Source: Marsupella aquatica (Eukaryota > Plantae > Marchantiophyta). From it: a stretch of DNA of 64,000 nucleotides. Where the stretch lies: contig OZ316897.1 of the NCBI GenBank assembly GCA_973895155.1, positions 6,399,327-6,463,326 on the forward strand, given 5' to 3'. The notes under the pieces were generated by a model that ran no database searches, was not told the DNA's origin, and saw only the letters and a list, made by a program, of their open reading frames with translations. A program made the translations under genes and the position numbers. Below are positions 27,601 to 60,305 of the stretch, one piece after another (position 1 is the first letter of the stretch; every line of letters begins with the position of its first letter).

Positions 27601-28660
27601 GGCATCTACAATAAACATCTGGCCGCAATAAGGGGGGAAGAGGGAGAGCTATGGATGAACTCACAGCCAATGGCACCTTGCCACATGGCAGGGAGATGCC
27701 TGAACCAATGGGAACAAAAATCCTGTAACCCTGTTTGAGTTAGTAATAACCCTTCTCCAAAATGGGGGGACAGGTTGACAAATATTCTAATTTGAGGAAG
27801 AGTTTCCTAAATTTGGGTAATTTGGGGGACATGTTAATAAAATGCAATAAGTAGTTATTACATAAATTAGATAGATTAGATTAGGACAGGGAAGTGCCAT
27901 TGCCCAGGGGCCAGTCCGGTGACGCCTGGGTTGTGCCCTGACGCCGACATACAGGCATAGGTGGGGCCATTACTAGAGAGTCCCGGTAATTGCACATCAA
28001 AAGTGTGCACTCTACTGTATTGGCACAGTCCCACATGCTGGGACGCTACGCCCAGTTGTTTGGGAAGTATTTCTTGCACCTAAGTTCTTTCCGCCCGAAT
28101 TGCTTGTAAAGATCTTTCTGTTCAGGGCAACCTTGGGCACCCGGCTGACCTGCCCAGCCCATCTGCCCATACCTGCCATTATGCTGCCCAGCACCGCGGC
28201 TGCCCGTACGTTGCTGCCCAATCTTCCTCTGCCCGAACCTCGCCTGCCCGCAGTTCACCAAAAACATTTCGCCCCCCCTGCCCACGTTCTGAAGGGCAGG
28301 TACTCACATGCTTCGGACATGGATGGAATTTGAGTCAGGCACAGACGGAAAGACCGGGCAGCCCTGTGATACCTTCGGAACTGACTAGAACATTGCCGCA
28401 CACAATTCTCGTACCTCGAAGATAATCATATTTCCGTTGACGCTTGTCACGGTATGAAACAAAGACGGGTAGCAAAAGCACAAGGTAATTGTACCGGCTC
28501 GTCAAAGCATGACATCCGCGACCCGTGAACGTCTTTCTCCTCTTGTCTTTGTGCCCAGCTCTCAGTCCTATGTGTTTAGGGTTTAATGTCCCGCAATTTT
28601 GTAAGCCCTCGTCTCTGAAGAACCACATTCCATACCATTGCGAGGTTGTTGGGGGTCACT

Positions 28661-30134
28661 ATGGAAGCCGCAGAGCCCGTTTCAATTGCGTCCAATTGTC
28701 TCAAAGCAATTGAAGGGACTCATTATAGAAAGGTCCTGAATGCTAAGCACCTAAATAGGCTGGACTGGGATTGTGTCATTCCTGGGTGCCCTAGCGCGAA
28801 AACTTGGGCGAGGAAAGATCGAATCAACGAGCATTGGCGCCGGTGCCATAATGGGGTCGTTCAAATTACACAGCTTGGCAAGGGAGGGCGGAAGCCCGTA
28901 GACGGCAAGGAAGGGAGGAACGCCTCAAATGAAGAGATGCTTAAACTCATCCGAACCAGGCACGGCTTCTTTCCCTGGAGGTGGCAGCAAGCCAAGAGCT
29001 TGAAGCTTCAACAAGAGAAGAACTACGTGGTCAAGCAATTTCTCACCTGCCACTTGGGGTACCTTCAGCAGGGTCCTCCACCCCGCCCCGGCCCACTTCC
29101 TGCATTGTTGCTCGCGTTTGATGCTGTTGACCCTCCATATTTGGATACATGGGATCACCTTAAACACCACGTTTATAGGGTGTGGTTACTAGCACATTTG
29201 AAATTTGTGTTGTACGATCGTGGAGAAGAAGCGAAATCCTTCCGGGACTATATGGGATCGAGGCTCTCTGCATTGCATGACAGCCGGGCCGCAGTGAAGG
29301 GGGTGAAGAAAGTCGAGTCAGACTCCAAGCTTCATGCATTACAAAGTGTGGTGTCAGCTTGTCATGACCGAGGTGAACAATTGACTGAGCTACTCCGCGA
29401 AGCTCGGGCTTACATGGACGAAGCTGGTGCACGGTACTGGTATGATGCCTTCCATTCCGGTCCAGAGTGCGAGATAGAGGAATCTGCCACCATGAATTAT
29501 CTTGACTGGCGATTCAGCTCCTTAGGAAAGGAAAGAAAAATGAGCGTTGCCAAAACTGGAATTGCTCATCGCAGGAGGCGTCTTCTTGAATTAGGCGTGG
29601 ACGAGGACGAACGCACAGCAAAAATTCAGGTACCCGCTCAGTCTCCACAACCTCCGTTGTTTGAGAATTACACTTTACAACACGACCATTGCCAACGTAA
29701 TGAACACAGCCTTGTGGTTCTGCACTTATATTGGGTGCTTGCTATAGGGTAGGTTTACCGATGCCGAACAAGATCTCTCCGACGACGATGAGAAATTTAG
29801 AGCCCGTGTGAGCAGGTTTGAATTGCACCTGGAAGTCACCAAATTTGTTTTGGACAACCCAAAATTGAAACCAGCGCCTTTGGGGGTCTGGGCAGCTATA
29901 TTCCAAGTTGCCGACGGAGATTCCCGGGATGATAAGCTTGTGGTCAGTGCTAGTGAGAACCGCGGTTCCATGCAGTGGGAGCATAGGGCTCAGGCTTTTT
30001 TGAAAAGCTTATTGCAAGCCACCGATGTTGTTCCTTTGCGCCAAAGTAAAACCAAGCGAACCGGGGCGTTGGTTGGGCACAAACGAAAGAAGGCAACAGA
30101 TGGGACTAGGCGTTCGACACGAACTAAGCCATAA
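28661..30134 (+). CDS. Unrecognised protein with an N-terminal C2H2-like zinc finger, paralogue 1 (~451 aa, 2 exons)
   Basis: Exons 28661-29629 and 29748-30134; phase-0 GT-AG intron at AKIQ|GRFTD. Motifs DWDCVIPGCP..INEHWRRCH, GFFPWRW, DWRFS and NRGSMQWE are shared with the genes at 46.6 kb and 58.5 kb. Confidence 0.8.
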
Positions 30135-31608
30135 GGGCGGTGAAAAAAACTCCATACATGAACCATCTGCCTCATCAGCACTTTGGATCCAGACATATGT
30201 GAACCTGCGAGTCCATACTTACTACAATCGTAATGTTTCCAAACCTGAATTCTTACGTAGCGCAATCAAAACCAAGCCTGGATAATTCTGAGGCTTTGGA
30301 GCATTGCATCATTCTTACACGACCATGTGTCCAGATACTTTGAAATAGAACACAGAACCCGCATTCATACAAAAAAGCGTTCTCCATATTTCAAATCAAT
30401 TAAATGGCGAATGATAAAGTCATATTCATTCTGTCAAATCCCTCTGTGCGCCCGTGAACAGTGTGCGTATTCGGGTTATGTTTGTCAAATGTTTGCCATA
30501 ATCGTGGTATGTGGCATTTATTCCAACAGTTCGCCCTTTCGTATTGTTGGCTATTCGTATCGTACCGCGATGTTCAATGCAATTATTCATAATCGTGGTA
30601 TGGGGGATTCATCCATTTCCCGGTACACATATGTTATGGGATGGCCACGGAGGGTAAAGGTGGGTATCGCCGTATGTATGAATGTCTCCATAAAACTGTG
30701 CCAACAGCAAACTGGACGGAGTATGCAAAATTATATCACTGCAGACCTCGATATCTCTCACTTTGATCAGCGTTACATGTACAACCCTGTGCTTTGAGGG
30801 GAATCATGATCTACGCTTGCTTCACAGGGGATCGAAATAACGGTAAGCACAGACTTGCAATTTGGTTGTGTTTTCTGTCATGGGCCCTGTGTAGTGTATT
30901 ATTGTGATAGGTGCATGAAGCAGCTTTGTGCCGGAGCAGGGAACAGTGACATTTCAGTTCTCGTGTAATGAGATGAGAGGAGAGGAGAGGAGAGCAGGGG
31001 AGAGCTATAACTAACCTCTATCATTCTCCCCTTAACTGCTCTAAACTAGGCTTTCTCTAAAAGCTTCTTCCCTGTGTACTGATTGACACAGGGTCGTCAT
31101 CTCGGAGATTCCTACACAACCATTAAATGGCCCTTCTCCCTCCACTGCCATAGCCTTCTTGTCAAACTTGGTTTAGGAATATATGGCCTCCATGAATCTC
31201 GACCCTGTTCCTCATGGATCCCTTTTACTCAAAACCACTTTCTACTCGACAAGCGAGACCCAGCGCTCTTGTTGAGTACCTCATCAAGACTAATGTCTGG
31301 TTCTAGGACATGACGCTGAAGCTTAGGGTTTAGGGTGAACTAACCCATCCTTGTCCGATCCCCATAATCTAATTATTCACATTCACGAAACATTTGACGT
31401 GAAGAATTTGAGCCCGACAGTTCTTTTCTGGAAGCCGCAATAGCCTCTGCCATCACATGTAATATTAGCGTTTCATACCACGATGCGAAATTTCATGCCA
31501 TCAAATCAATGACTGCTCACAGTGCATTTCCACATTCCGACGTTTGACCTACGGCAGGGGCATGTTATGCATTACGTGTTGGTGATAATTTATCCAATCG
31601 TTCTCTCA

Positions 31609-32087
31609 TCGCTGTGCTACTTATCCTTCACTGAGGTCTACTGTAGTGTTCATGGTCGACAACATACATTTGATCTAATCAAACCGCGATAAATTGGATA
31701 CCAAAACTAAGTATCATTGTATGTCTACCACCCATCAGAGTCAAAGTCAGTATCATCATCATTCTGCGAGTCACTGGTTTGGCAAATGTCAAAATGCAAT
31801 TTGGAGAATTGAGTTACCACATTTCAATTGCGATTAAAAAATCAGGGAAACAACCCTGAAAAACAAAACTACATTGTAGTATCACAACACCAGTCGATAA
31901 AATCCGGCATCGTGTCCCTCGCTGCGCTACTTATCCTTCACTGAGGTCTACTGTAGTGTTCATGGTCGACAACATACATTTGATCTAATCAAACCGCGAT
32001 AAATTGGATACCAAAACTATGTATCATTGTATGTCTACCACCCATCAGAGTCAAAGTCAGTATCATCATCATTCTGCGAGTCACTGG
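31609..32087. repeat. Direct repeat, 169 bp x2 (31609-31777 and 31919-32087)
   Basis: Near-identical copies spaced 310 bp apart; they duplicate the 3' end of the adjacent minus-strand ORF. Confidence 0.9.
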
Positions 32088-32376
32088 GATGGTCGGCCTC
32101 ATGATGAGCTCTCGCCTCCTCCTTTGCTCTCTTCAAATAAAATTCCGAGCTCCTTGCGCGCTCCTTGCGAGGTTTCTTTACCGTCCGCTTACTGGGGGCC
32201 TTCTTGACCCGCAAGGCCCAGGCGGGACAAGGCACCGCTCCTTCTTGCTGCTCCAAAGGTGGTCGTGGAGTTGCCCGTTCTCCTGAAGGCTGCCCCTTAG
32301 TGGCAATATTAGATTGAGCTGCAGGGGCCTTGTCATGGCCTGCCTTTGCACCGTCCTTGTGGTTTGGAGGAGCCAT
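32035..32376 (-). CDS. Small low-complexity basic/acidic hypothetical protein (MAPPNHKD...DDDTDFDSDGW)
   Basis: Open frame with a Lys/Arg-rich NLS-like segment and an acidic tail; no recognised domain. Confidence 0.35.
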   Translation of the reverse strand: MAPPNHKDGAKAGHDKAPAAQSNIATKGQPSGERATPRPPLEQQEGAVPCPAWALRVKKAPSKRTVKKPRKERARSSEFYLKRAKEEARAHHEADHPSDSQNDDDTDFDSDGW

Positions 32377-33099
32377 GGAAGTGGGAAGGAAGCTAAAATG
32401 GAGCAGTGAGCAAGCACAAACTCCCTTGCCTGCAATGTGCTTAGGTTTGAGCACTGTGATAAACATTCACGAAGGTAGGCCACTTCCTATCGACAATTAT
32501 GTTGTGCAGAACCTCGTTCCTCTAGGTTTATATGCAATTGGATATAGGGTACAAATCTGAAGACCATCTTCGCATGTTTACGTTCTTGCATTGCGGAGCA
32601 TCGCAGAGCATTGCGGAAAGGCATTAGTGCGCGTCTATGTCAGTCAGTGCCAATCGCGTGTCGCGCCCAAACTGCTTAATACGTGAGATTTATAAATGTT
32701 GTCATGGTATGATAGTAGGACGGAGGTGTACGCCTTCACCCCTGCCGGTAATCACACATCAAAATGTGGCTGCATTCATTGATCGATAGACAAAAACTTG
32801 GGATATCACGGTATGCATGAGGTGTCGTACATAGTATGTGTCGTCATTTGATGTGCACCCGTCCTCACCTGGGCCAGCAATTGTGTCCAATAATCATAAC
32901 CATACCTTCATACTAAATCACGATCACGAGGCACTGCCGCTTAGGTTCCCTTCACATACCAATCGCCCCCATTGGCCGACACCTACCAGAATTGATGCCG
33001 AGCACACTTCAAAAAGTACTAATGTGCGACCTGCACTCATGGATTCACGGAATTCATGTATGTTCTTCACAGTATGACACTACACCTTAAATCAAGTTA

Positions 33100-33400
33100 A
33101 TCTTCCTCCCCTCATCTTTCTAGTACAACTCCTTGGGTCCACATACTCCCGAACAAGATTAGCTTATCTTTCTCCCTCATCTTTCCGTTACAACTCCCTG
33201 GCTCCACATACTCCCATAATAGATTAGCTTACCTTTCTCTCCTCATCTTTTGTATAGAAGTCCGTGGGTGCACATACTCCCACAAAAGATTACCTTATCT
33301 TTCTCCCATAAAACAAAGTCGGTTTAGGTACTTGGCTCAACATATTCCAATAAAACAAGCTGAATCTTTGCAATTTAACTTGTTGCTCCACATACTTCCA
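33100..33400. repeat. Degenerate tandem repeat, ~62 bp x4-5
   Basis: CCTCATCTTT...CACATACTCCC...AGATTA.CTTA.CTTTCTC recurs in tandem. Confidence 0.75.
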
Positions 33401-33401
33401 T

Positions 33402-33922
33402 ATAGCATGCTCATCCTGGAACATACTTTATTTTTTGTCTTGTAGTGATCTGAAAGTAAATAAAATATGAGAGCATAGAAGTGCTATTATATAAGTAAAG
33501 TGTCTGCCAAGAAAAGCACACTGACCAAGAAAAGGTACAGTCAAACAATGCTACGACTTAACTCAGGGTGCCTTATGAATGACACTCCTTTCAATAAAAA
33601 CCATAAACCTAGGAAAGAAAAACATGAGGAGAACTTAAGAGGCTATGCATTCATGTTCTTCAGCATCATTTCTCTCACTCGTGGTGGTGGAGCCTTTGGT
33701 TTCATCTCTAAGAAAACACATATTGTGAAAGGGGGCTGCCAAAATAAGTTCAAAACACTCTAGAGTACCTAAAACTAAAGGGGTCTAAAAATTAATTAAA
33801 AATGTATAGAATACAAAGGCTGCCCCTTGATAAGGCAGATTGAAATGAAAATACATGACACAGAAATCTCAATAAGACAAAATCTGAAATGTGCATTCAC
33901 CATATAGCATATAGCAGCTTCG
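33402..33922 (+). mobile_element. AT-rich dispersed non-autonomous element, divergent copy 2
   Basis: Starts TAGCATGCTCATCCTGGAACA and ends CATTCACCATATAGCATATAGCAGCTTC, matching the ends of the 24.1 and 43.9 kb copies. Confidence 0.55.
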
Positions 33923-34929
33923 AAATAGTAAGTTAACCCCTCATCTTTCTATTATAACTTGTAATTAGGTGATTATGAAGGGTTGAACTATAGAACTCCT
34001 GCTGGTAATCACACATCAAAACGTGACTGTATTCATTGACTGAAATAAAAAGAACTAGGGTTATCACGGTATGCAGGGATGTCGTACAACTTACATGGCA
34101 TATTTTGAGAAACTCTAAAACCCTATAGAGGCCCCTATAAATTGTAAACTTAATATTTTTGTAAGCTACTCTTAAATGGTAATAAGGTGTTTTCCAATAA
34201 GTTCAAAGACGGCCACATGTTGAAGGCTTGGACGGTCCGCTGTAAGCACCGCCCATGACCTCCCGCCCCTAACCCTAAACCCTATATCCTAAACCCTGCT
34301 TAGCCCCCTCTCCCCACAAAAGCGACCTCGAGGACGGTAACCAAGTGACGTCCCTGACGACCCTGAAGTAAGGCCGTCCAGGACGGCTCTATCCTCAACC
34401 CCACCGGCCGGCGACCTGCGATGATGTTTTCCCCCATGGACGTCCATATCCTTCAGGTGACGTCTTGGACGGCCCCGCGTAAAGCCGTCGGGGACGTCCA
34501 TCTTACAAAAACTAACACCGAGGGATGGGCTCGATGACTTGGTATTTTCTTTCTTGAAGGACGTCCATGGTGGCCGGTAGGGAAGGCGCCGGCTCCACAC
34601 TCAATGCGCACTCAGTAGGCCACCTTTTGGACTCGATTTTCTTTCTCTACATCCGCAGCTGCTTAGGGATGGTGCACCTGAAAGCTGAACGAAGTTTGTT
34701 AAGTGGTTAAGCCATACTGAATCGGTGAAGTTCAGAGATTTCTTGAAGTTCAGGAAGCTATGGATTTCCGAACTTCGCCCGATTAGTACTCTCTCACCAG
34801 TTCATCTTCTCAGTTTCTTTCTTCTCCAGTAGCATCGTGGCTACACCAGGACCTTGTCATTGGCAACCTGAAATCCCAATGTTTAGCCATTCAGGATAAT
34901 TGCATAGTCTTCTCTGATTTTCAGATTCT

Positions 34930-36717
34930 ATGGCTGCCCGAGTTCTACCAGTTAGTAAGAGCATCAGGGTGAATCTACCTTCTGACCCTGATGCTTATTT
35001 TCACCTCTTAGGCAACCTAGTTGAGATGGGATTGAGTCACTTGCTTTTTCTCCCATGGGACATGGTGCATGGATCCCTCATTGCAGATTTTCTTCGAGTA
35101 CCGAGCCCTGGTACTTTTAGAAGTTCCACTAGAGGTTCGACCAATGTTTGCACTCCTGCTATAGTTGCCGAGGTCTATCAGTTGAGTCAGGAGGGAGAGA
35201 GATTGTACTCCGTTGGGGAGGACTTGACTGCTCGCTACTTTCGAGGTGTCAGAGATCGGAGGACTAGTTGGAGGATTGATCAGTGCAGGAACCAGGAGTT
35301 AGCTCATTTGCTCCGATTCCTTGTACCCATTTTTCATCCTACCAAGCCCATTAGGGTTATGGTTTACTTAGCCAGTTCCATCATTGCTTCATGGACCGGC
35401 AAGAGGAAGATCAACTGGGCCCTAGTTCTTTCAGAGGTCATCGCCAAGCAGGTTGCGGTTGTCACTACTACTAGCCAAACTTATTTGACACCTTACTTGG
35501 CGCATGTCTACTGGACGAGACATTGTTTGTTACCAGTGGAGCCGAGCGATTGGAGGAGGAGAGTGAGACACTTTGAGCTTCCACAGCCAGAGTGTGCGAG
35601 AGAGCTGACTCCACCACCTACGACATCACCGACACCCCCAGTGCAGCAGGCGACACCACCAGAGGTACCAGGGACAACTTCTTCCACTTTTGTGACTTCC
35701 ACCTCTTCCACTTCATGGACTGATTTTATTGGTGATGCTGAGAGACTAGCTAGTGTGGCTGGTTTCAACCAGCATTTGGTTGCCGAGGCTACACGACTTT
35801 TGACCTGTACCCCATCCCAGTTACTTGATTGTATTCGGAGTTTGATTGCGGATCCTCGTTCTACTCCACTTCCCCCTGCCTCACCCTTAGTACCTTCCCC
35901 CCAGCCTGATATCCCTATGGATGTTGAGGAGCCAGAGGTACCCATAGTTGATGCATGTATTCCTCCTACATGTACACCCACTCCCGAGCACCTTCCTTCT
36001 CCCATCCCCGAGCCTTTACCACCTTCACCTGTACCCTCTCCCCTTTCATCCCCTTCCACTCAGGAGGCCACTTTACCACACTCTGATGTTCTATCTCCCC
36101 CCCCTACCAGGGAAGGAAATGAACCCATTCCCGAGCCTAATCCGAATACTGAGACATTAGAGCCCCCCAGTGTACCATTTCTAGCTCCTACACCTTTGAT
36201 GTCTCAGCATCCTATTGTCTCTTCTACTGCTGATATTGAGCCCCTTTTTGCTCTTCCTGCCGCGTTTGCTACCATGATCACTACACTGATTGACACACGC
36301 ATTCCTCTTGCACCACCCTTACCTCCACTGATGTTTGGTTCCCACTCGCTCCCTTTTGTACATACATATGACATGGTTCCTAGTTATCCTGGTATTTTAT
36401 GGCTTCCTATCGACAAGTTGCGCATGCCAGAGATTGAGGGTCCACAGTTGTGGAGTTGGGTTTATCATTGTAGAAAGGTCATTGCACCTATCCCTCTTCC
36501 AGCCCCGGACATTCCATGGCCCTCAGATTATTATGTTTGGATTGGACCGGATGGACATCCCATCCGGAAGACCAGTGACCCAGATCTGATGAGACTCCGA
36601 CAGGATATTTTTCGCCGACAGTATTTGAAGGGCAATAGGGCCAAAGGGAAGTTAGCACTTGGATTTGTAGCGAGTCTTCCCCTGATTGTAGTTGACCCTC
36701 CTCCTATTGTCTTATGA
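34930..36717 (+). CDS. Intronless 595-aa ORF resembling accessory ORFs of bryophyte LTR retrotransposons, with a Pro-rich C-terminal half
   Basis: Long uninterrupted ORF. N-terminal motifs LLFLPW, LRFLVPIFHPTKPIRV, GKRKINW and YLTPYLAHVY resemble TE-associated hypothetical proteins of bryophytes, from recollection rather than a search. No gag/pol or LTR seen. Confidence 0.6.
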   Translation: MAARVLPVSKSIRVNLPSDPDAYFHLLGNLVEMGLSHLLFLPWDMVHGSLIADFLRVPSPGTFRSSTRGSTNVCTPAIVAEVYQLSQEGERLYSVGEDLTARYFRGVRDRRTSWRIDQCRNQELAHLLRFLVPIFHPTKPIRVMVYLASSIIASWTGKRKINWALVLSEVIAKQVAVVTTTSQTYLTPYLAHVYWTRHCLLPVEPSDWRRRVRHFELPQPECARELTPPPTTSPTPPVQQATPPEVPGTTSSTFVTSTSSTSWTDFIGDAERLASVAGFNQHLVAEATRLLTCTPSQLLDCIRSLIADPRSTPLPPASPLVPSPQPDIPMDVEEPEVPIVDACIPPTCTPTPEHLPSPIPEPLPPSPVPSPLSSPSTQEATLPHSDVLSPPPTREGNEPIPEPNPNTETLEPPSVPFLAPTPLMSQHPIVSSTADIEPLFALPAAFATMITTLIDTRIPLAPPLPPLMFGSHSLPFVHTYDMVPSYPGILWLPIDKLRMPEIEGPQLWSWVYHCRKVIAPIPLPAPDIPWPSDYYVWIGPDGHPIRKTSDPDLMRLRQDIFRRQYLKGNRAKGKLALGFVASLPLIVVDPPPIVL

Positions 36718-37554
36718 CATTTGTACCTCATTTGCTAAACTTATTAGTGTATTGAGCTTTTACTACTTCACCACTTGCGTAGTTGAACGTTTACTACCCC
36801 TCATCTTTGTATCACTCCATACTGTGATGAATTTCGTGAATTTTGTAATATCGCTGACCGCACGGGGATATTCCTCTTGCTGTTCATGGACCCTGCCATG
36901 TTTGGGTGCTCCATACCGTGATGAACTTCATGAAGTATGTATTATCGCTGACCGCACACTGTATACTCCTCTTGCTCTTTATGGAGTTCATGTTGAAGTC
37001 TTTTACACAACTTCATAACCTCGAAAAGGAGAGGAAGATATATCAACTCCTATAATACACAGTTGCGCCACTTTTTAGAGTGGTCGTCATTCAAATATGC
37101 AGGGCACAAAAATTAAAAAATCTGACCAAGAGAAGGAATAAAACAAAATTGAATTATATTGAGTGTGAAATTTCCAAGCAAGAACTAAAGGGGAATTGGG
37201 AATGTCAGGGAATGCCAATACACAATAATCAAATATTTTATGGACCATCTATGTATAGTACTATCCATGCATACTAAGCCCCATGCATAGAAATAGTATT
37301 TTCCATGCCTAGACACAATTACCCCATGGTAATCTATGTCCTAGGAGGAGTTTAAATGATTACAAATATTACATAATGTAATAGAAAAGTTCAAACCAAA
37401 AAATAGTACAAAAGGCCTAAAGGGGGGGGGGGAGAAGTTAAGGTTTTCAAGGAATTACAAAATGAAAAATACTAAGACAAAAATCATTCTTGACTGGTTA
37501 TACTTTGTGGTTGTTTTACTCATTTTTTGCGCCCATTTTGCACAAGATTTTCTT

Positions 37555-37912
37555 AAGAACATCTTGGGCGACACCACATCTTTTTTCTTAAACAACAACG
37601 TCTTGGGCAACACAACATTAGTTTTTCTTAATGACATCTTAGATGACATGACATCTTTTTTCTTAATAACATCTTGAATGGGAGACATGACATCTGTTGT
37701 TCTCAACGACTTTTTGGCCGACATGACATCTTTTGTTATCACCGGCATCTCGGCCAACACGACACCTTTTGTTCTCACATCTTGGGCGACACAACATCTT
37801 AAGTTCCTTCTCAACGACCGATGACTTGGCCGACATGACATCTTTATTCTCAACAACCTCTTGGACGACACGACCTCTTTTGTTCTCAACAACATCAGGA
37901 ACGACATCTGTT
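37555..37912. repeat. Degenerate minisatellite (~30-40 bp units)
   Basis: GAC(A/G)ACATCTTTTGTTCTCAAC-like and TCTTGG(G/C)CGAC units recur about 10 times. Confidence 0.7.
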
Positions 37913-38758
37913 GTGCAATGCATGGGTATTGAGCTAGTGGAATGATAAAGACAACTACAATGGCACGCATGAGTCCAAAGAGAGATGAACTTGTGGAGTG
38001 ACGCCCTCTATCACTCCCCTAGTACTATGCAGAGTGAGAAGGAGGGAGGAATATAAGATGTGCATTCATTGATTTATAGACATCTAATGTGGTTTATCAC
38101 GATTGGTATGCTGCCCCATTTTCGTGTCCATTTAGCAGGATTGTTTGTGAGCACCCTTATGTAATTCGGAGCCTGCTTGTAATCATACATCAAAATGTGG
38201 CTCCATTCATTGATTGAAAGTCACATTACAAGTATCACGGTATGTAGGGGTTCCGTACATAGTATCTGTAATATTACATGGTCTACAGTGAACGATGTAT
38301 ACCTAATTGTTAAGCATTTATCGTCCCTGCTGGTAATCATACATCAAAATATGGTTGCAGTCATTGATTGCAAGAGAAAAACAAGGATTATCACGGTATG
38401 AAGTGGTACCGTACATAGTATATGTCATATTTTGATGCGTTTATCGTGGACTGGGCTAGCATGCTCCGTACTCTATTACGTGATATTATTGGGACGGTAT
38501 TACTTAGCGTGAATATTACGTTTACCTTGGCGGTACTTATCGCAAGTCGATAGCAGTGGAAGTGTGCACAATAGTTTTGATGCGGCGAGTAGCAGTTCTG
38601 TTTGCGGGCGCAGATACAGCTTCGACTTTGAGGCAACAGCTCCGACTTTGATTTGCGTGTGTTGTGAGCGATATGATAGCGCGGCCGCAGGCGGACTTGG
38701 AAGCAACGGGTTGAAGGCAGACGTATGCCCCTATCCGCGTTACCAACCTCTCCACGCC

Positions 38759-39412
38759 ATGGCTGAATGGACTCCACTCGCAGAATTTGAGGGTTGTCAG
38801 GCAGCTTCTAAAGGCAAGGACTTTCCACCCTCCTTGGTGTGGGCGTTCAATTATGTAGCCAGGCATCCATACCCACATAAATTTGTTTACTCTGCGTGTC
38901 CACAAACTTCATGCTCGAGATCGCTCGAATTCGGGCCGCAATGTGGGCATCGTTTACCGGGGGAACCAAAGTTTAGATTTGAGCTCGTTTTATTCGATGC
39001 AGTACACGGGGCGCGAAAACCCGTGCGGGCTAACATCTGGAAATGTGCCTGCAATTTGTTGAAGTGTACCCCATACGACTTCAATGTCTTGCCTGAGCTA
39101 GACCAGGTTCGTCTGGTACAGTCAGTTCTGCAGAATTGTCCCAAGATTAAAGTGTCACTTTCAATAAGAGATATGGAGTTGCATATTGAGCACCTGACGA
39201 TTATGGATGAGGGTTTGACAGTGCCACGTTCCCTACATGCTGGGTCCTCCAGTGCGAGGAGGCCCATCGCCAGGACTTCCACCAATGGTAAGGAGACTGA
39301 GTTGACTACTCCAGCTAAGTCTTCGTCAACTACTCCATCGAAGTCTTCTAGTGCAAAAAAAGTCCTCAGCAATCTTATAAAGGCATTGCAGGAGGCTGAT
39401 CTAGACGACTGA
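38759..39412 (+). CDS. RPA70 C-terminal (DBD-C)-like OB-fold protein with a zinc ribbon, ~217 aa
   Basis: FVYSACPQTSCSRSL..CGH..PKFRFELVLFD..VRANIW..ACNLLKCTPYDF parallels the RPA1-C pattern YxACxxCxKK..C..YRxxLxxxD..W..AxxLLG. Ser/Thr-rich tail. Confidence 0.6.
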   Translation: MAEWTPLAEFEGCQAASKGKDFPPSLVWAFNYVARHPYPHKFVYSACPQTSCSRSLEFGPQCGHRLPGEPKFRFELVLFDAVHGARKPVRANIWKCACNLLKCTPYDFNVLPELDQVRLVQSVLQNCPKIKVSLSIRDMELHIEHLTIMDEGLTVPRSLHAGSSSARRPIARTSTNGKETELTTPAKSSSTTPSKSSSAKKVLSNLIKALQEADLDD

Positions 39413-43288: not shown

Positions 43289-43364
43289 CAACCGATATGC
43301 AACTTTTTTTGATGGGCACTTTGTTGGATATGAATAACGCTTTGACGATGGACGTAGGCATTAA

Positions 43365-48030: not shown

Positions 48031-48138
48031 ATTTCCCTGTCAGACTCCCAGTTATACCAACTACCTTACATTGAATTCATGAAATCCTTATAAACTTCTC
48101 GTGGTGTGTGCCAAGAACGGGGCTGAATACCACGTTTT

Positions 48139-48578: not shown

Positions 48579-49214
48579 ACGAGAGCATTGCTTGGATCTG
48601 ATGCGATACTCATTTTCCGAGCGAATCAGGATACATGGGCGGTGCGGCAGCAATCACTGGGGCTGTTGTAGAGGACGAGGCGTTAATCGGAAACATCACA
48701 CCCACTTTGACATACAAGCGCAGTATGTGGTGGTACCTAGGCTCGTGTTCCATGCCTGCTCGCACGTTCATTGTTGTTGAAGATTGGATATTCCTGTATT
48801 GGCATTGCTAGAAACCCACATCGTAGCATGGAGGACAACTCATGACAGAGACAAAGTGTCTCATGTTTTATTGCTATCTTATGTGGCTTAATAGGGAAGG
48901 TATTAGGGAAGGTACTTGGGTCAACGGAAGAGGCTTGCCACAAACGGGACCAGGGGCCCCAACACAACATTCAGGACAGCGAGCTGGGTGCCAAACAGAA
49001 GTGGCCCTTGGTGGAAATAGTACCCGAATCACCTCCACACGACGGCCAAAGAGGTGTGTACACGCAACTCATAGTGATACAGTATAAGAAAATGTGAGAT
49101 ATCATGGTATGAATACCGTCCCAGCGTGTTGATACCATGGTGCGTTGAGTCGCAGGTGTAGAGGTTGTCGATGGCACGAGTTGTGCACTATGCATCCCCG
49201 GCAAGGGAGGGGTT

Positions 49215-49676
49215 GTGGTGATGGGCAGGGGGGTGGTGAAGAATGCCATGGCGGCATCATTGAGCGAGGGAATGGCATATTTGCTGATACTGGAGTGGTC
49301 ATTCAAATCATGGTATGGCTCACCAGAGTGGGACATGGGTTTAGTGCCATGCGCTCAGAATTCGTATTCCTGGCTTGCACAAGGCAAGTTTGTGCATTGG
49401 CCATTACATTTGCTGTCGCCTTGTGAGGACGAGAACGGCAGTCACCTAGTACTACGTTTCCCGAGGCGGACATTCCTCATGCCCACTACAAAAGAGATAC
49501 CCGGGATGGATCGTGCACAGCGTCGTCACGAACTTTCGAAGAACATTATGCCCCACAAGTTACGTTCTGCAGGGTTTACAATCGAAGAAGAGCCCAAAGA
49601 GGTTGAGTGCAGCCAGACGTTTGAGGGGTTGATGTCGATATTGCACCTATCCCAGGGCATTGCAGATGATGATTGA
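49215..49676 (+). CDS. ORF or exon with a Tnp1/EnSpm (CACTA TnpA C-terminal)-like domain, paralogous to the 52.3-52.6 kb ORF
   Basis: LSEGMAYLLILE..GSPEWD..SYSWLAQGKFVHWPLHLLSPC aligns with the 52 kb ORF. The GxxIxWPxxLV ending is typical of TnpA-related domains. Confidence 0.45.
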   Translation: MVMGRGVVKNAMAASLSEGMAYLLILEWSFKSWYGSPEWDMGLVPCAQNSYSWLAQGKFVHWPLHLLSPCEDENGSHLVLRFPRRTFLMPTTKEIPGMDRAQRRHELSKNIMPHKLRSAGFTIEEEPKEVECSQTFEGLMSILHLSQGIADDD

Positions 49677-51234
49677 CACATGTAAAGCATAAACTATGAA
49701 TAAAGTCTCCATTTTTGCTATCACATTTCCCAGCAACAAAATGGAGGTCCCGGTCCACTCCTCCCAAGAGCAGTACCTCGTGTGCTATTGCAGGGAGATG
49801 CAAAGCGCTTCCAGGGATTTACATCCGTCCATTTGTGAGGCTGGGCTCGAATAGAGCCTTGCATTCCTGATGTGATGTCTCCACTATTGCGGTCAGCAAG
49901 AGTGGTCGATGATTGTATGCCCCACTTACATTCTCGCATTAGCAATTGAATTTGCTCCGAGAGCTCCTATAGCGATCAATAATGTATTGGTTGTGGACGC
50001 CCAAATTTATAGCCCCACGAACTGGCACATCATCGACCTTGCCACTTAATGGACATGAATGAAACCCTGTGCAGAACACATTTTGTGGCGGACGACGCCT
50101 GAAAAGATCGCTCGAAAGATGTACAATTGTCTCGGACAATTATGTGGAGCACTTTATGTCATACCGGATGTACATGACAATTGTATGCCCCACTTACATT
50201 TTTTGAATTAGTTCTGTGTGTGTAAAGGAGCACTTGGTAATATCATGGTATGTAAATACGACGGCCGCAAAGATCGTGTATGATTCGCGTCAGGGGAGGG
50301 GGTGGGGAGTTAGTACGTGGCCTAAATTGCGCATCGGGACAGGGCATATGCGACACCCAACATCCATACCAGGATAAACGTCGGGAATATATTTAAGTCA
50401 TTCACTGCACCAAGCAATGATACGTAACAAACTGCCGTATGCCATCTGGCAATAAAATACAGATGCCAACGATGACAATTCTGATTTTTTTACATGGGAG
50501 TGAGCAAAAGAGTTCACACTAAAGGAATGAAAGTGCCTTGGGGCACAGGTGAGTTTCAATCCGCCCCTAAACTATGGTACTAACATGCCATAGTACAATT
50601 CTAATATCAAGGTGATTGGAAGGGATGTGAGTTGACACGTGACTGTAATGGTCCAAGAAGACAATCTGATGAGACCCCAATGTTACTTTTGGACATATGT
50701 TTAGGGTTTAGGGTTTACCCATTCAAGTAAAGTAAACTTATAGAAAAACAAGAATACAAATTAGAGTTTCCAGTTGAAAAGACGCTATTTGTAGTAAAGT
50801 GGGAAAAGGGTATTGAGCTGAAAACTAAATTATGAAACTGCTATATGGCGAATCCAGCGGCCAGTTCATTACCTAGGGTAAGTACACACAAGTACCTCTA
50901 CTGGTGTTCATGATTACTTTTAGTTTCATCTGTTATTTTACTCTTGTACCTTATGCGCAAATTGTTGAATCTCACTCTTCCTAATGAATAACCTGTTTAT
51001 ATTTGCCACCAAAAAATTAGCAAAGTGGAAAAAGGCTATTGAGCTGATAAAAAGTATTAATATTTTTTTGAAATCTCTCTATGAAGTATTTGTTACTACA
51101 TAGTAAGTTCTTTTTTGCAATAACCCTATAATCGACCAATGACACAATCACTGGCCCCAAGCATAAAATGGCCACAACAATGACATCTTTTTTCACATCC
51201 ACATCTATCGTGCAAATCCACTCCTAATGAATAA

Positions 51235-52261: not shown

Positions 52262-52630
52262 CTAGCTGACGGGAACGACCGGATATAGATTGTCAACTTC
52301 TGAAGGATGAGGTTCAGGGACTATGAAGCGTGGCCTGCAAGGAGAGGGCACAGTCCTCAATCCGATATGCCCACGGGGTGCGCTTTTACAGGGCGATACC
52401 AGACTCAGTGGCCAACGTATTTTGTTCCCCACCCGCAGGTTCTTGTAGAGGCACCCCTGCCTTGACAGAGCTGGATCCCAATCGGGTCCTCCGGTCTGCA
52501 CAGTTGATGGAAGTTCGAGAAGTTTGACATAAACAAACCCTTCTCCTAATAGCATATTTCCCTTCCTTCTAGAACTGATTTCCATGTGAGGGTCAATAGA
52601 CAAACCCTTAGCCCTCCCAAATAACCGACT
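52262..52630 (-). CDS. ORF or exon with a Tnp1/EnSpm-like domain, paralogous to 49215-49676
   Basis: LFGRAKGLSIDP...LGEGFVYVKLLE..GGPDWD..LYKNLRVGNKIRWPLSLVSPC. Confidence 0.45.
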   Translation of the reverse strand, partial: SRLFGRAKGLSIDPHMEISSRRKGNMLLGEGFVYVKLLELPSTVQTGGPDWDPALSRQGCLYKNLRVGNKIRWPLSLVSPCKSAPRGHIGLRTVPSPCRPRFIVPEPHPSEVDNLYPVVPVS

Positions 52631-53103
52631 TTTGTTAGTGGGGTCAGTTCAGCGTTCCATGGAGAACAGGGCGCAAGAGCAGCCCACCATGAATTCCACG
52701 ATTTTTCCGTTGCTCTGCCATGCGTCCCACGTTGTGTCTGCATGAAATGTGAATTCTCTTTAGTCAACAATGCGCGTCATCACATGAATCCATACCGTTG
52801 ATAACAATCATTTTAACACTAAAATCAAAGAATGCGCTATGTAAAGTTGTACTTTAGTCAGTTACTCAGTTGGGCTTACATGTCGGGGTTATGCCGAATC
52901 TGCTTCGAAAGCTTGGTGCCTCCAACCAGCTGTTATGCGCCGCCTGCAAATCCCAAGCGCCAGGAATACGCTCATCTGCCCATGGAAACAACACAGAGTA
53001 AGGACTTTGCTATCGGCAATTTATGTAATGGAAAACAAGACCAATGAGATGAGAACGTTAGGCCATACAGACCAAGCCATGCTTTCAGACCCAGGTTTCC
53101 GTC

Positions 53104-53853
53104 TCAGGCAAGCCTGCCGTGCGCCTTCGTTTGCGTGTTGACATACTGATCCTCAACGCGGTTTTTAAAAACACTTAGAAACTCCGGTACGGATTGAACC
53201 ACCCCATCATCAAGGCATCGCTTGAGACTGCTCAACCTTGGAGCCACCCAACCCAAGAGAAACCTGTCTGCAAATGGGTCTCCGTAATCGGGAGTAGCAG
53301 CACCTTTTCTTGGCCACTCCACGAGGTATATATTATTACCCGAACTACTGCGCATAAATTTCACCGGGCTGTCGTCAACGATGACAGTGTAGCGATATCC
53401 AAATTCGGGCCATTTTGCTGCGATGAGGGCCATGGGTTTCAGCATGATCCGTTGAGACGACCCCGGATAGCAGTAGCCCGAGGAGTAAACATTGTCTTGG
53501 CAGAGAATGAACCTGAACAGGTTTACTGTCACATGACCAAAAACCCCCTCCAATAACGACATCACATTGTGTGATGCAGCACATGACCAAATCCCAACCG
53601 TAAAATGCTCCAGCAACCAATACACAAATCGAAGACAACCTGGTCGCAGTCTACATTGTCCCCGACTACACATGATAAAACCATCTTCTTGCGTGCCGTC
53701 GCGTCGCCTTTCCCATAGCGTGCCAGAAAGGTCCAGCATAACTAGTACGCCTGCATCCGGATTGGCTATGGTTACACTCAGGACACCTCGGGATGGGCAT
53801 AGGTTGTGTCCATAGAAAGCCAACAGCATACTATGATACCTATTGAAGAGCAT
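53104..53853 (-). CDS. FCP1/NIF-domain HAD-superfamily phosphatase-like protein (intronless)
   Basis: LVMLDLSGTL (motif I, DxD altered to DxS), LRPGCLRFV.WLLEHFTVGIWS, FILCQD and TVIVDDSPVK. The true start may be a downstream ATG. Confidence 0.8.
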   Translation of the reverse strand: MLFNRYHSMLLAFYGHNLCPSRGVLSVTIANPDAGVLVMLDLSGTLWERRRDGTQEDGFIMCSRGQCRLRPGCLRFVYWLLEHFTVGIWSCAASHNVMSLLEGVFGHVTVNLFRFILCQDNVYSSGYCYPGSSQRIMLKPMALIAAKWPEFGYRYTVIVDDSPVKFMRSSSGNNIYLVEWPRKGAATPDYGDPFADRFLLGWVAPRLSSLKRCLDDGVVQSVPEFLSVFKNRVEDQYVNTQTKAHGRLA

Positions 53854-53890
53854 CCCTCATATCATTAAACCGGGGTCCATTGTCTGCGTC

Positions 53891-55640
53891 TGGACCATTC
53901 ACCATATCACTGGACCACCGGGCAAATTGAACTCGTCAAAGACAAAACGATGCCCGAATTTCTCCATTGCCTACGTACCAGGCTGCGTTGAAGGCGACGG
54001 GGGGTCGGTGTCCGCGTCTGGACCAGGATTGCCACTTGGACCGCGCGGGGGTTCCGCACACAGAATCTAGGATCATACCATGATAATCAATCCAGTCCAT
54101 TCTGCATATCACTGGACCACAGCGCCAATTGAAGTGGTCAAAGACAAAACGATGCCCAAATTTCTCCGTTGCCTATGTACCAGGCTGCGTTGAAGGCGAC
54201 GGGGGGCCGGTGTCCGCGTCTGGACCAAGATCGCCACTCGGACCGCGCGGGGGTTCTGCACACAGAATCCAGGATCATATTGTGATAATCAATCCAGTCC
54301 ATTCTGCATATCACTGGACCACAACGCCAATTGAAGTGGTCAAAGACAAAACGATGCCCGAATTTCTCCGTTGCCTACGTACCAGGCTGCGTTGAAGGCG
54401 ACGGGGGGCCGTTGTCCGCGTCTAGACCAGGATCGCCACTTGGACCGTGCGGGGGGTTCTGCACACAGAATCCAGGATCATACCGTGATAATCAATCCAG
54501 TCCATTCTGCATATCACTGGACCACAGCGCCAATTGAACTGGTCAAAGACAAAACGACGCTCGAATTTCTCCGTTGCCTACGTACCAGGCTGCGTTGAAG
54601 GCGACGGGGGGCCGTTGTCCGCATCTGGACCAGGATTGCCACTTGGACCGCGCGGGGGTTCTGCACACAGAATCCAGGATCATACCGTGATAATCAATCC
54701 AGTCCATTTTGCATATCACTGGACCACAGCGCCAATTGAACTGGTCAAAGACAAAACGACGCCCGAATTTCTCCGTTGCCTACGTACCAGGCTGCGTTGA
54801 AGGCGACAGGGGGCCGGTGTCCGGGTCTGGACCAGGATCGCCACTCGGACCGTGCGGGGGGTTCTGCACACAGAATCCAGGATCATACCGTGATAATCAA
54901 TCCAGTCCATTCTGCATATCACTGGACCACAGCGCCAATTGAACTGGTCAAAGACAAAACGACGCTCGAATTTCTCCGTTGCCTACGTACCAGGCTGCGT
55001 TGAAGGCGACGGGGGGCCGTTGTCCGCATCTGGACCAGGATTGCCACTTGGACCGCGCGGGGGTTCTGCACACAGAATCCAGGATCATACCGTGATAATC
55101 AATCCAGTCCATTTTGCATATCACTGGACCACAGCGCCAATTGAACTGGTCAAAGACAAAACGACGCTCGAATTTCTCCATTGCCTACGTACCAGGCTGC
55201 GTTGAAGGCGACGGGGGGCCATTGTCCGCATCTGGACCAGGATCGCCACTCGGACCGCGCGGGGGTTCTGCACACAGAATCCAAGATCATACCGTGATAA
55301 TCAATCCAGTCCATTTTGCATATCACTGGACCACAGCGCCAATTGAACTGGTCAAAGACAAAACGACGCCCGAATTTCTCCGTTGCCTACGCACCAGGCT
55401 GCCTTGAAGGCGACGGGGGGCCGGTGTCCGGGTCTGGACCAGGATTGCCACTCGGACCGCGCGGGGGTTCTGCCCACAGAATCCAGGATCATACCGTGAT
55501 AATTAATCTAGTCCATTCACCATACCAATGGACCACCGTGCAAAATGAACTCGTCATAGACAAAACGACGCCCGAATTGCTCGTTGCCTACGTACCAGGC
55601 TGCTTTGAGGGCGACGGGGGGCTGTTCTCTGTTGGTGTTC
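53891..55640. repeat. Tandem array of 202-203 bp units, 8 full copies plus a partial ninth; each full unit carries CATACCRTGAT or a variant
   Basis: Anchor CATATCACTGGACCAC at 53903, 54105, 54307, 54510, 54712, 54915, 55117, 55319 and, degenerate, 55521. Confidence 0.97.
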
Positions 55641-55800
55641 CTGGATCGTCTATTGTCGCATTTGGATCGGTTGGTCCGGGATGAACTACCGCCATACTCA
55701 GAGCGGCCAAGGTTTCTGTGAACCACACCCACACGCATACCGTGATAAGAATATACACCCTAGACAACATCATTAATAGGATTTGGCCATTTAGGAATAT

Positions 55801-56849
55801 TCATGAATGGAACGGAACTAAACTATCCTTATGCGTGAATGTCATACCTGAAGCAAGTTCATGAGGGGAAGATGCCTCAGTCCCTATAATTGGGTTACTT
55901 TTCATTGCACGACGATGCTTCCGAGGTGTGCCAGAGTCAACATCAGATTGCTTTTTTTTTGAGGATCTCGCCCTGCTTCGGATTTCACTAGTGCGCAAGC
56001 CTTCGGACCCTGGGTCTGTAACGTGCCCGGGTTCCTTCGTACGCAAACTCCGACCTTTTACAACTTTCGAACGTGCGACTGTCTTTACCAATTTGTTTCG
56101 GACGCTGCTTCTTTTAACAACAGGGACAGAGGTTGTCCCCTCACAGGGGGTTGTGAGTTCATTGTTATCTACAGGAAGGCTTCTGTTCCTTCTAGTCCGC
56201 TGCGCAACTTCAGGTTCGGCGGCCACTGACCCACGTCTGGATGCTTTGTCTGTGCCAATGATGAATGATGGCGTTTCTGTTGTACCCAATATGTCTTCCT
56301 CTTTCTCGACTCCGTTTTGATGATGCTCACCTGAACCGCTGGTTCGCTGCTCACTTGGGCGCCCTTCCTCTTCTTCCCTCCACCCACGGCCACACCTAAT
56401 GTGAATACAAATAATTAGCACCCTGGTTCAGAATCATATAACTACGGTAGGACCGATAGAGCTTCATAATGCAAATAGTGTGAATGTTTAGTACCTCTTA
56501 TTGGGCGAGAAATTGGTAGCTTGTTAGCCCTGACTTCAACTCCCGTTGCGTCCACTCGGATATGCACTGAGTCATCTACTTTAATATACACGATCACTCC
56601 AAAGTCTGGGTTATTGGGGCAAAACTCTTGTACAGATAGCCAGAGAAAGGAAAAACAAAAGATCCTGGGTGGTATCCTCGTGTACCATCCATATGCATAA
56701 CCGAACCAGGCAAGAGGTGGAACTATGACTACCCGGCCTAACAAGGTGCCAGTCCCTACACCTTTACCTCTTCTCGTCCCTAAATTTTTGTAATTTCTGT
56801 TCAAACCAGATGCCACAGATATTTGTTTGTGAAATAGAAGGGATGCCAC
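55801..56849 (-). CDS. Probable spliced hypothetical gene with a basic, disordered C-terminal region
   Basis: Adjacent same-strand ORFs of 135 and 206 aa with plausible splice sites; no recognised domain. Confidence 0.3.
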
Positions 56850-56893
56850 ACGGTTGGGTTAATTATACAAGTGATGTAGTAAGTTGAACTACA

Positions 56894-58553
56894 TCAGAAC
56901 ATGATGTGAGGCTCGAGTATCCGGTTTTTGAACAAAACTGCGTATACATCTTTGTCCCCGGTATGCAATCTCTCTGCTCTAGCAAATTCACCGATGCAGG
57001 TTTCACAATACTTCAACGTACCTTTGTCAACCAACATTTGAAGCTTTTCCTTAACATATGTCTGGAATCCGTGTTCCCACTGGAGGGATCCAAGGTTCCC
57101 CAGTGGCTCGATGTGGAGCACTTTGTCCTGCGTGCCACATTCATCTGTCTCTGGAAGGCCTTCACCCCATTCAGTGAGTTCTGCCGGCCTCAAGTGCGGG
57201 TTTTCCAACACGAACGCCCGAACCTCTTGAAGGATGTCCACTGCTTTAACGGATGGTTTGAACTCATAGTCCAGCTCCGACTGATCGATTTCCGAATCAT
57301 AGAACCTACCCTGCTCAACCAAACAACACTCTTCGATCATGACCAGCGTACTTGTCATTTACCGAGGCTATCCAAAATCTGCAGTCGACCCCCAATATCT
57401 GTGACCCCCATTATGTATAATATGCTGTCATGTGATGACATTCGATACCTCAAATATCGTACAGGATGGATTGTTTGCAGAGTTCATAAGTTGGATTTTG
57501 TGTGAAGGCCATACGCGATTGAATAAAGACCCATAATATGTACATGCTTAATGTGGGGCACGCATCGAGGCTTACCTGTTCATCCGCAACCCCCGGGTCC
57601 TCCACGATGCCGAGAGACGCGAGTTGTTTGGCCCGAATGGCTCTGCCTGTTTGGGCAACGACAAGTTTCTTCTTTCTGCCCAGAGCACTGAATTTCCAGT
57701 CCATAAACTTCAAAACCAATGCGTCGTGCAGCTCGGCGGACGGCGCAGCATTGAAGGAATCGAACCAGAAATAATTTTCAGCATCCTCCATGTAATCCAT
57801 CGCCTCCTTCAACAACTCGGTGAGGTCTGGATCCACGCCCTGTTGCGTAAAAGCTGATACAACTCTGCTGAAGCATGTCAGCATTTTTGTCATTCCTGCA
57901 GCTGCCTTTTTCCCCTCCCTCGTCGATACGGAATGCTTGTGCATAGTTTGCATGGCTAGAAATTTTTTCCTCACGTGGTCTCGAAAGAGACGGTGCTGTG
58001 GATCTTGAAGAACAAGCTTCAAGTGCGCGGTGAGCCACACTCTGTACTGAGGGTGCTTCAAGAGCACGGTATCGCCCAAATAAGGAAGATCGAGAGCAGC
58101 AAAACAAACGAGCAGGTCAGGAACTTCCGAAGGTGCCGAAGGTGCCCCCCGTTGCAGGTATCTAAGATGACGAGTGAGATATTCTTGGACAATTCTTTTC
58201 TTCTCTCCCTCTAGCATTGACATTTGGGCTTGCTGCCACCTCCACGGGAAGAATCCAACAGTGCATTTCACAATTTCGAATTTCTTCCGGGTTGCGGCAA
58301 TCACGTTCTCCTGGTTTCGCCTTCGATTTTCTTCTTCGCTCAACTGTGGTGTATTCCCAGATTGGTGGCACTTCAACCAATGATCGTTAATGCCCTTCAC
58401 TGTGGTGTAAGCCTTCCCTATCGGACAACCTGGAATGATGCACTTCCAATCTAGTTTAGTTGGCTGTTTGCAATTGCGAACCCTGGTGTAATGCATCCCA
58501 TCTTCTGCTTCCATGCAATCGGTTCTAACTCCACTTGCAATTGGAGTCGCCAT
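56894..58553 (-). CDS. Zn-finger-like paralogue 3 (~464 aa, 2 exons)
   Basis: Exons 58553-57576 and 57310-56894; phase-0 intron at ADEQ|GRFYD. Motifs DWKCIIPGCP..INDHWLKCH, GFFPWRW, YRVWL, DWKFS and NLGSLQWE. Confidence 0.8.
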
Positions 58554-60305
58554 GACTGCCAATGAAAACCTACACTAAGAAAGTTACCCTGCTGGCTGAA
58601 ATTGGTTATCGGAGCACGAGTGGGCACAGGAAATGGCAACTTGTGGAAGCACGCCCTTTGACCGCAGTGTCAAGACCACTGAGTCCGGAAATGTAGTGAC
58701 CATCGTAATCCCCTAAACAAGGTTGTGCTTCTTTTGGTACTTCTTGCCACTCCCCTGTCATCTGTACTTAGGGCACGGACATGACATCTCTCGGAGCCAG
58801 AGGTTGGCACGGCGAGACATTTCCATACCGTGACTTACGCCGAAATACATTTCCGGCGCCGCAGTAATGCAGCACTAACGTCACGGTATAACAAGCCCAA
58901 TAGCCCTGACGGTAAGCACGCAGCACAGTGTGGTAAGATACGCTATGCATTCATTGATATGGTACAGAGACATCAGTATATCATGGTATGGACGTTTGGA
59001 CGGATGCTAGTATGGTTGGAGGTTTTTGAGGGGTTAGGGTTAATGGTTCTCGCGACAACGTTCCAGAAGCGTTGGGCGAAGCCCCTTGCAGACCCTAAAC
59101 CCTGGCCATAAAACCCCTACATAACAGATAACTGATAGACCCCCTTTGTCCTGAGCGCCGTGTAGAGGGCGGTGTTAATTACCATTTCTGTCGAGGCACC
59201 GAACATTGCCCACGGGCGTCGTAAAGCACCCGACCTCGCATCAAAGATTTATGGCCTTACTAAATCCAGTATCCTGGTATGACAGCAGGCAGACCAAAAT
59301 ATGAGGACGGCTTGGTGTGGACCAAGATTTGGTCCGTGCAATACGTCCATCATAGCCCTCGTCCAGGTTTCATGACCTGTCATTAAATGAATGATAGCCC
59401 CCTTCACCTGACTGCCTAATCTCCGCTGTTATTGCCTTTTGTCGTCATGGGCGGTGGCTCTGTCGCCCATGATAGAGCCGTCGCCACAGTCAGTGATAAC
59501 CATGCCATTATGTATTTATTATCATGGTCTGGGGCAGCCCCCAACCTCGACATGAGCACGCCATTATTTTGATCCAAGTTAAAGTTGAATGGATGCCCCC
59601 AATGCCTGACCGCCTAGTGGAGGACTCTATTATTGCCGTTTGGCGTCAGGGCGCCGAGCATTACCAATGGGTGCCTCTTCGCAGCGTTCCCCAAGCTCAG
59701 TGATACCTGTATCTTTATATCACTATTATGGTATGGAGATGGCCCAACCAAGAGACGAGGAGGACACCCTAAACCCGGGAGTTAGTCCGTGCAAAACCGA
59801 GAGATGAGGATGGCACCTCGGCTGCCACGGGCAACACGACAATATTTTGCGCTATTTTTCCTTCATAGACCATCCGTGTTCATATTCATAAAAACACCCA
59901 AGTAAGATTATACATATACATATGTGAAACTGTGATGGAAACCAAAATGGGCCCCTTAACAATTTCAGAAAGTATGCACGGAGAAAATTACAATTGGAAT
60001 TGACAAAATTGTGGGTGACATTGCAGCTAAACACTATTCATTCATATCTGGGAATTCTGAAGCAAAGTGTTTGTTCCGTCGCTTATCCCTGTTGGCACTA
60101 GCCTGAAGGAAATGTCTCCTAAGACTATATTTGTCCTTGCACTTCTGCTTGCCCTTCCTTGGCCGAAAACGGAAATTGGACGGTTCATAACCAGGATTCT
60201 GCTGGTCTGACACTCTTCTATAGGGCATGTATCGCTCACCTAGACGAGTGGACTGGGTCCTCGGCGCTTTCCGCATATTGCCACACATCTTCTCAACCCA
60301 GCTTT

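Follow-up and report, generated by a model that had tools for sequence, protein, structure and literature searches.

We confirmed that the 11-bp motif CATACCRYGAT is strongly enriched in a 64,000-nucleotide stretch of DNA from the liverwort Marsupella aquatica (contig OZ316897.1, positions 6,399,327 to 6,463,326; hereafter the window), and we found that it forms the stronger half of a bipartite site with inverted halves, the dyad CATACCRYGAT-N19-23-RTCAHTGA. The dyads lie in a Mutator-like element (MULE) of at least 36 kb, which starts at about position 27,978 and runs past the end of the window. Judging from the sequence, a protein very probably reads this dyad on double-stranded DNA and, given such a protein, it is probably encoded by the element itself. 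We see about an even chance that the dyad serves self-recognition: a protein encoded by the element would bind it and counter the element's silencing or methylation.

Motif sites in the window

A direct scan recovered 28 exact sites on either strand, compared with a shuffle mean of 0.08, and 0 of 100 shuffles reached 28. All 28 sites listed in the initial annotation of this DNA are present, as are the 14 one-mismatch variants that it named. With up to one mismatch allowed, the number of half-sites rises to 53 (28 exact and 25 with one mismatch; shuffle mean, 3.83; 0 of 100 shuffles reached 53). With internal duplicates masked, 20 exact sites are left, where an order-3 Markov model of this region predicts 0.096. 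Furthermore, the most frequent 8- to 10-mers of the right part of the window are words from the motif, and the corresponding lists for the left part are free of them. No half-site lies in positions 1 to 28,445 even when one mismatch is allowed, which leaves 28 kb of gene-rich host DNA free of them and agrees with the earlier observation that none was seen in the first 28 kb. The half-sites begin at 28,446, where the motif had been said to start, but extend beyond the end then given for it (59735), as one-mismatch half-sites also occur at 62744 and 62847, inside an intron of the transposase gene. The last of them ends at 62857.

The sites are less independent of one another than had been stated, since a 202-bp array holds seven of the exact sites, one longer family holds five, and several are duplicated pairs. 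Many dyads do nonetheless sit in mutually unrelated flanks, and outside the 202-bp array sites occur at about 1.2 per kb, in both orientations.

A two-part inverted site

The 11-mer, first described as the binding unit, is a real motif but only one half of a site whose bipartite shape had been missed. A second half, RTCRHTR, a pattern picked after inspection of the data, lies 19 to 24 bases downstream in 19 of 41 deduplicated sites, where 0.41 would be expected, and repeats the first half in inverted, degenerate form. The spacer of the 23 training dyads is 21 bp long in ten cases, 22 bp in five, 23 bp in four, and 20 or 19 bp in two each, with an A+T content of 68% versus 54%. A two-part weight matrix detected 45 dyads in the element, 23 of them being the training sites, none in positions 1 to 27,977, and 0.43 per Markov replicate. 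Together with the 53 half-sites, these dyads span 28446 to 62857 on both strands.

Conservation follows the two halves. Among the five closest of the end-like units described below, a five-copy family, the halves are 96% and 87% identical and the 33 bp on the end-ward side 83% identical, whereas identity falls to 51% in the spacer and to 42% in the 30-bp flank on the other side. 

The variable positions of the 11-mer are its CpG positions, with GT, AT, AC, GC, and C6>T as variants. This fits the methyl-C deamination initially proposed for the RY core, although the direction of change is not demonstrable, and would also fit a protein that accepts methyl-C for T. If methyl-C could stand in for T at these positions, such a protein could read a silenced copy.

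Two other readings of the site were rejected. The dyad is not a hairpin or structured RNA, because at three positions where the halves face each other pairing is absent in 13, 20, and 18 of 21 dyads and Rfam returned zero matches at the gathering score for positions 27,900 to 64,000. A splice-donor reading of GGTATG was discarded for the array, in which it lies 21 bp from the acceptor; moreover, sites occur on both strands. A metagenome scan for the full dyad gave 18 loci, which we take as chance occurrences because each has a single match and none has DNA or protein similarity to the window.

Location of the dyads relative to exons, duplications, and CpG

When coding and noncoding DNA were compared, as the initial annotation had suggested, the sites were seen to avoid predicted exons, which make up 36.6% of the element: 2 of the 53 half-sites and none of 27 dyads lie in them. 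The two exonic half-sites encode S-W-Y-G, and both are without a second half.

Seven of ten local duplications, selected by us from repeat comparisons, carry a site (1.4 expected; P = 1e-4). A 310-bp local duplication (31609 to 32092) has a symmetric dyad in each unit (31680/31713 and 31990/32023), and two facing dyads generate a 150-bp palindrome with 83% identity at 43141 to 43288. The 202-bp array (53895 to 55626), read on the minus strand, has 8.5 units, each composed of a predicted 75-nt exon with good splice borders and a 127-nt intron with one dyad, which ends 21 bp from the acceptor. Among the seven matched exons, five measure 75 nt and two 76 nt. A second imperfect palindrome, at 45138 to 45336 (76 to 79% identity), is without the motif.

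The ratio of observed to expected CpG is 0.88 within 100 bp of sites and 0.65 in other noncoding DNA of the element (P = 0.002 in 528 circular shifts, with motif cores, exons, and duplicates masked). With high-copy stretches removed, the values are 0.89 near sites and 0.71 elsewhere.

Solo copies of the element end

Solo copies of the end sequence of the element harbor seven dyads, all in the same direction (plus strand). Within these end-like units the dyads begin 36 or 47 to 48 bp inside, and the similarity breaks off precisely where the first base would lie. The units lie at 32740 to 32815 (dyad 36 bp inside), 33997 to 34073, 38171 to 38400 (two tandem units with a 154-bp period, starting at 38171 and 38325, with a dyad each), 42199 to 42274, 46125 to 46212 (dyad 48 bp inside), and 58904 to 58990 (dyad 47 bp inside). 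The true left end matches the internal consensus at 18 of its first 25 bases (27978 to 28002, plus strand) and has no intact dyad behind it. The internal units begin with CCC, or one change off, and the real end with GAG, a difference that may protect the internal units from cleavage. A search of the window detected no target-site duplication at any of the eight ends, nor any 9-bp repeat with an end-like neighbor, and we discarded nested insertions with such duplications at the end-like units, of which the window holds none.

Extent and copies of the element

We located the left end by comparing contigs of four public sequencing runs over 27,760 to 28,700. In run X1, the contig of the flank has a depth of 16.9 and no differences; it stops at 28,007, 30 bases past 27,977, and a common contig with a depth of 65 starts at 27,978. 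In all four runs, loose flanks that differ from one another join before 27,967 to 27,984, which gives a discrete terminus common to copies at different loci, as in the MULE superfamily. A contig of run X5 tracks the flank up to 27,977 and then departs, as an empty site would. The end is stated as about 27,978 because two loose ends with other flanks, in runs X4 and X5, match 8 to 11 bases of the left flank (27967 to 27977), which may reflect a target preference or a slightly different end. These junctions replace an earlier boundary at 27,888, drawn from a step in GC content.

The element is mobile and multicopy. Over 24,000 to 43,999, single contigs of the element show few differences and have 2 to 6 times the depth of flank contigs (33 to 52 versus 17 to 20 in X1), contig depth serving as a rough guide to copy number only. 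In three of the four runs, 40122 is joined to 41576 in copies that lack a 1,453-bp module (40123 to 41575); this module contains a 271-amino-acid orphan open reading frame (ORF) and begins about 40 bp past a dyad. We infer that a single unit, transposase included, extends from about 27,978 to 64,000, with its right end outside the window, because of the shared motif, the three paralogs described below, and the conserved gene order in another liverwort, Calypogeia fissa.

High-copy repeats are nested within the element; one such family occurs at 33400 to 33909 and 43933 to 44441, as well as in the flank at 24183 to 24661. A word scan on either strand found 10 telobox-like words (CCCTAAAC) in the element, where about 1 is expected (28574, 31324, 34273, 41611, 50565, 50699-50709, 58711, 59093, 59767), and 3 more in the host part.

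Genes of the element and candidate binders

A multiexon MULE transposase gene with a SWIM finger, outlined by Pfam matches and splice borders, occupies 60993 to 63648 on the minus strand, with two half-sites in the intron after 62941. Its MULE-type DDE domain matches PF10551 above the cutoff (E = 3.7e-11), and the SWIM match is below it (E = 0.013). The translation shows candidate D, D, CxxH, and E residues. A homolog search with the N-terminal exon gave no match.

The leading candidate binder, ahead of the transposase, is a zinc-finger family with three paralogs (at 28,661, 46,647, and 58,553). Each has a C-x4-C...H-x3/4-C/H finger at the N terminus, together with a basic stretch and a long domain of helices. 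Paralog A (28661 to 30134, plus strand), for which an AlphaFold model is given below, has two predicted exons at 28661-29629 and 29748-30134. Paralog B, together with downstream predicted exons, covers 46647 to 49676 on the plus strand and has intronic dyads at 48317, 48568, and 49101. Paralog C (52268 to 58553, minus strand), outlined with the help of the C. fissa protein P0016, is a predicted multiexon gene for a protein with finger and helical domains, the repeat exons of the array, a NIF-like phosphatase domain, and a C-terminal domain. The NIF-like domain (53104 to 53856, minus strand; Pfam NIF, E = 3.4e-8), which by prediction forms a fusion with the zinc-finger protein, reads DLSGT at the place where the catalytic motif DxDxT is expected, and may therefore be a pseudo-phosphatase. 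Paralogous C-terminal domains at 49149 to 49673 (plus) and 52265 to 52648 (minus) are 37% identical, have no Pfam match, and are also found in C. fissa models.

A word-indexed search with the zinc-finger family returned two matches, both from C. fissa, and a full profile search returned 39 at an E value of 0.001 or better. Among named organisms, this liverwort supplies the nearest relatives of the element's proteins. Ten of the profile matches were looked up, six being from C. fissa and four being metagenome proteins. Those judged unrelated (P0010, P0027, P0034, P0037, and P0039) were kept out of a 36-row alignment, which also omits the long or fused P0006, P0013, P0016, and P0028. In C. fissa, near-identical paralog pairs lie on different contigs, and P0016 matches the C terminus of the finger gene, exon 2, NIF, and the 52,268 domain in the order of the window; a related multigene unit therefore exists in this liverwort. 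The C. fissa elements lie around CAM6096572/575, CAM6107233/239, and CAM6082029/031. The AlphaFold model based on 36 sequences reached a pLDDT of 89.8, and one based on three sequences was poor (51.5). Foldseek found no match at an E value of 0.001 or better for the whole zinc-finger model (the finger domain was not searched alone), and the best VIA Z, 7.8, covered the helical hairpin only. An Atlas search with the homolog P0003 gave no usable match, and a metagenome scan for loci of the family gave 56 pattern matches, none of which was confirmed.

A 595-amino-acid ORF (34930 to 36717, plus strand) is flanked by dyads, and contig depth indicates that part of it is common to higher-copy repeats. 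It had no match in Pfam or homolog searches; its product could be PMD-like.

Host flank

The left part of the window is eukaryotic host DNA with genes. Exons of CFAP61 lie at 921 to 9174 on the minus strand (PDB matches to E = 1.7e-26); this cilia- and flagella-associated gene suggests a plant with flagellated sperm. Host genes between 11219 and 22673 have RRM, helicase OB-fold, and Snf7 matches. A 71-bp inverted repeat (17040-17110 and 18303-18373), 99% complementary and 1,192 bp apart, is likely a small recent terminal inverted repeat (TIR) element in a host intron.

Discussion

Considering these data, we propose a model in which the dyad began within the end sequence of the element family, spread inward, and then was multiplied by tandem duplication. 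A dimer would bind the double-stranded dyad with two binding heads about three helical turns apart, and each of the two unequal halves may be recognized by a paralog of its own. Binding would recruit or mimic host demethylation, as VANC and TnpA do, and the element would stay unmethylated and expressed. As the binder, the zinc-finger family is more likely, with somewhat better than even chances, than the transposase, which we place somewhat below even, because the real left end keeps its first 25 bp and not the dyad.

The initial annotation attributed the sites to selection for protein binding and not to mere copying, which is supported by the conserved halves, the diverged spacer, and the many unrelated flanks; duplication did multiply many of the sites. 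Its interpretation is partly supported, since it missed the bipartite site, the membership in a MULE, the role of duplication, and the seven dyads in end copies.

Several points weigh against self-recognition as an antisilencing device. Confinement of the motif is established within the 64-kb window, which limits any claim of genome-wide specificity, and the exons that the sites avoid are our own prediction. In this copy, paralog B carries two disabling in-frame stops (46671 and 47508), and two of the seven repeat exons of paralog C shift the frame. Neither Pfam nor PDB offers a match for the zinc-finger family, and Pfam detected no VANC-type domain (DUF1985, DUF287, PMD, or Ulp1) in the 38 and 20 ORFs scanned. 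The circular shifts behind the CpG result overlap and hence are not independent, the ratio is nonmonotonic with distance (0.90, 0.72, 0.52, 0.64, 0.69), and such a signal could also arise from promoters or younger DNA. Finally, VANC21 motifs in Arabidopsis form same-orientation clusters, and the dyads described here are mostly single and in both orientations.

An alternative that we consider unlikely is that the dyad is a transposase site serving transposition only, with internal copies that aid transpososome assembly or the movement of submodules and have no silencing role. The seven dyads 36 or 47 to 48 bp from a sharp boundary, inside copies of the end, fit this hypothesis, as does the 1,453-bp module missing from other copies. 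Maize Mu has a predicted transposase site at positions 34 to 64 (PMC10401008), and there are MULEs with internal solo TIRs and no target-site duplication, the best-conserved motif of one family being confined to the internal TIR (PMC3310237). However, the real left end of this recently amplified element lacks an intact dyad, and most dyads have no end-like flank and lie in introns, where transposition would not need them. None of the eight ends in the window shows a target-site duplication, and the CpG retention is left unexplained in this way.

Rather more doubtful is the recruitment by the element of a host transcription or chromatin factor, for example, for germ line expression. Noncoding location, amplification, and CpG retention would fit any bound factor, and the telobox-like words show that host sites are present in the element. 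Against this stand the 28 kb of gene-rich host DNA free of half-sites, even with one mismatch, and the fact that the site is part of the end sequence of the element itself. For a plant transcription factor, a dyad that is long and asymmetric and has a 19- to 23-bp spacer is also unusual.

Nested insertions and chance duplication could in principle have left the dyads as neutral relics of old ends and of a small repeat, which we regard as improbable: at least seven dyads do lie in end-like units, seven exact sites share one array, and high-copy repeats are nested in the element, but the halves remain 87 to 96% identical where spacers and flanks are down to 42 to 51%, 20 exact sites survive duplicate masking, and duplications pick site-bearing DNA (P = 1e-4).

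Self-recognition with an antisilencing role leads to a more specific and more tentative proposal, that of an independently evolved antisilencing system in a giant MULE of a liverwort-type plant, in which a new zinc-finger family would read an end-derived, intron-seeded site; on the present sequence data we regard this as possible but doubtful. If true, such a parallel system in a plant whose sperm are flagellated would rely on an unrelated protein and a bipartite site and would mean that the strategy arose more than once. In the literature cited here, sequence-specific antisilencing by DNA transposons is documented for flowering plants only (VANC, TnpA, and AtMu1). A defined site with two candidate binders may also provide a new programmable demethylation tool. 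Furthermore, a length of at least 36 kb plus seven internal end-like units is unusual for a MULE. A literature search at the level of listings found no earlier description, and a prior annotation in repeat libraries is possible.

Comparison with known systems

The closest parallels concern proteins that act on their cognate elements through short motifs. Like Spm/CACTA TnpA, an accessory protein that reads an element-specific motif near the ends and drives demethylation and activation, the protein proposed here would read an element-specific motif; both a MULE transposase and TnpA activate cognate copies through motifs, and cognate ends can be activated and hypomethylated by a MULE transposase on its own (10.64898/2026.08.24.746577). 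Unlike the present case, TnpA belongs to another superfamily and is restricted to termini, and no TnpA-like domain was detected here. The dyad lies 36 to 77 bp inside end-like units, near the MURA site at positions 34 to 64 (PMC10401008), as in the AtMu1/maize MURA system. AtMu1 binding, in contrast, is reported at TIRs, and the sites here are mostly internal, with a real left end that has no intact dyad. Tomato PM-ZIBP MULEs likewise have extra internal TIRs without target-site duplications and a motif in the internal and not the external TIR (PMC3310237). One or two extra TIRs are described there, compared with seven same-direction units and many free dyads in a transposase-encoding element of at least 36 kb here. 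The conserved first 25 bp of the end recall the footprint of an IS256-family transposase (PMC7780238).

An extensive resemblance is to VANDAL21 and VANDAL6 of Arabidopsis, multigene MULEs with antisilencing VANC proteins and a short motif in introns and intergenic DNA that is multiplied by tandem repeats (PMC5735166, PMC10398659). For VANDAL21/VANC21, spread of the motif by tandem repeats, local CG hypomethylation, and accessory tandem peptide repeats have been described (PMC5735166). In the window, too, the motif is concentrated in noncoding DNA and multiplied by tandem repeats, including those in predicted introns of the accessory gene, and tandem exon and peptide repeats, as in VANC-type accessory genes, are predicted. 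The differences are a two-part inverted dyad instead of a 9-bp word in same-orientation clusters and a candidate accessory protein from an unrelated zinc-finger family in three copies. VANC has been described as dicot specific and MAIN derived (PMC13547354), and VANDAL has been placed with Brassicaceae elements (PMC6446971). Because VANC is described as dicot specific and no VANC-type domain was found in the ORFs scanned, we do not file the element as a VANDAL. By analogy, it is best read as an element that would work like VANDAL/VANC without being a VANDAL.

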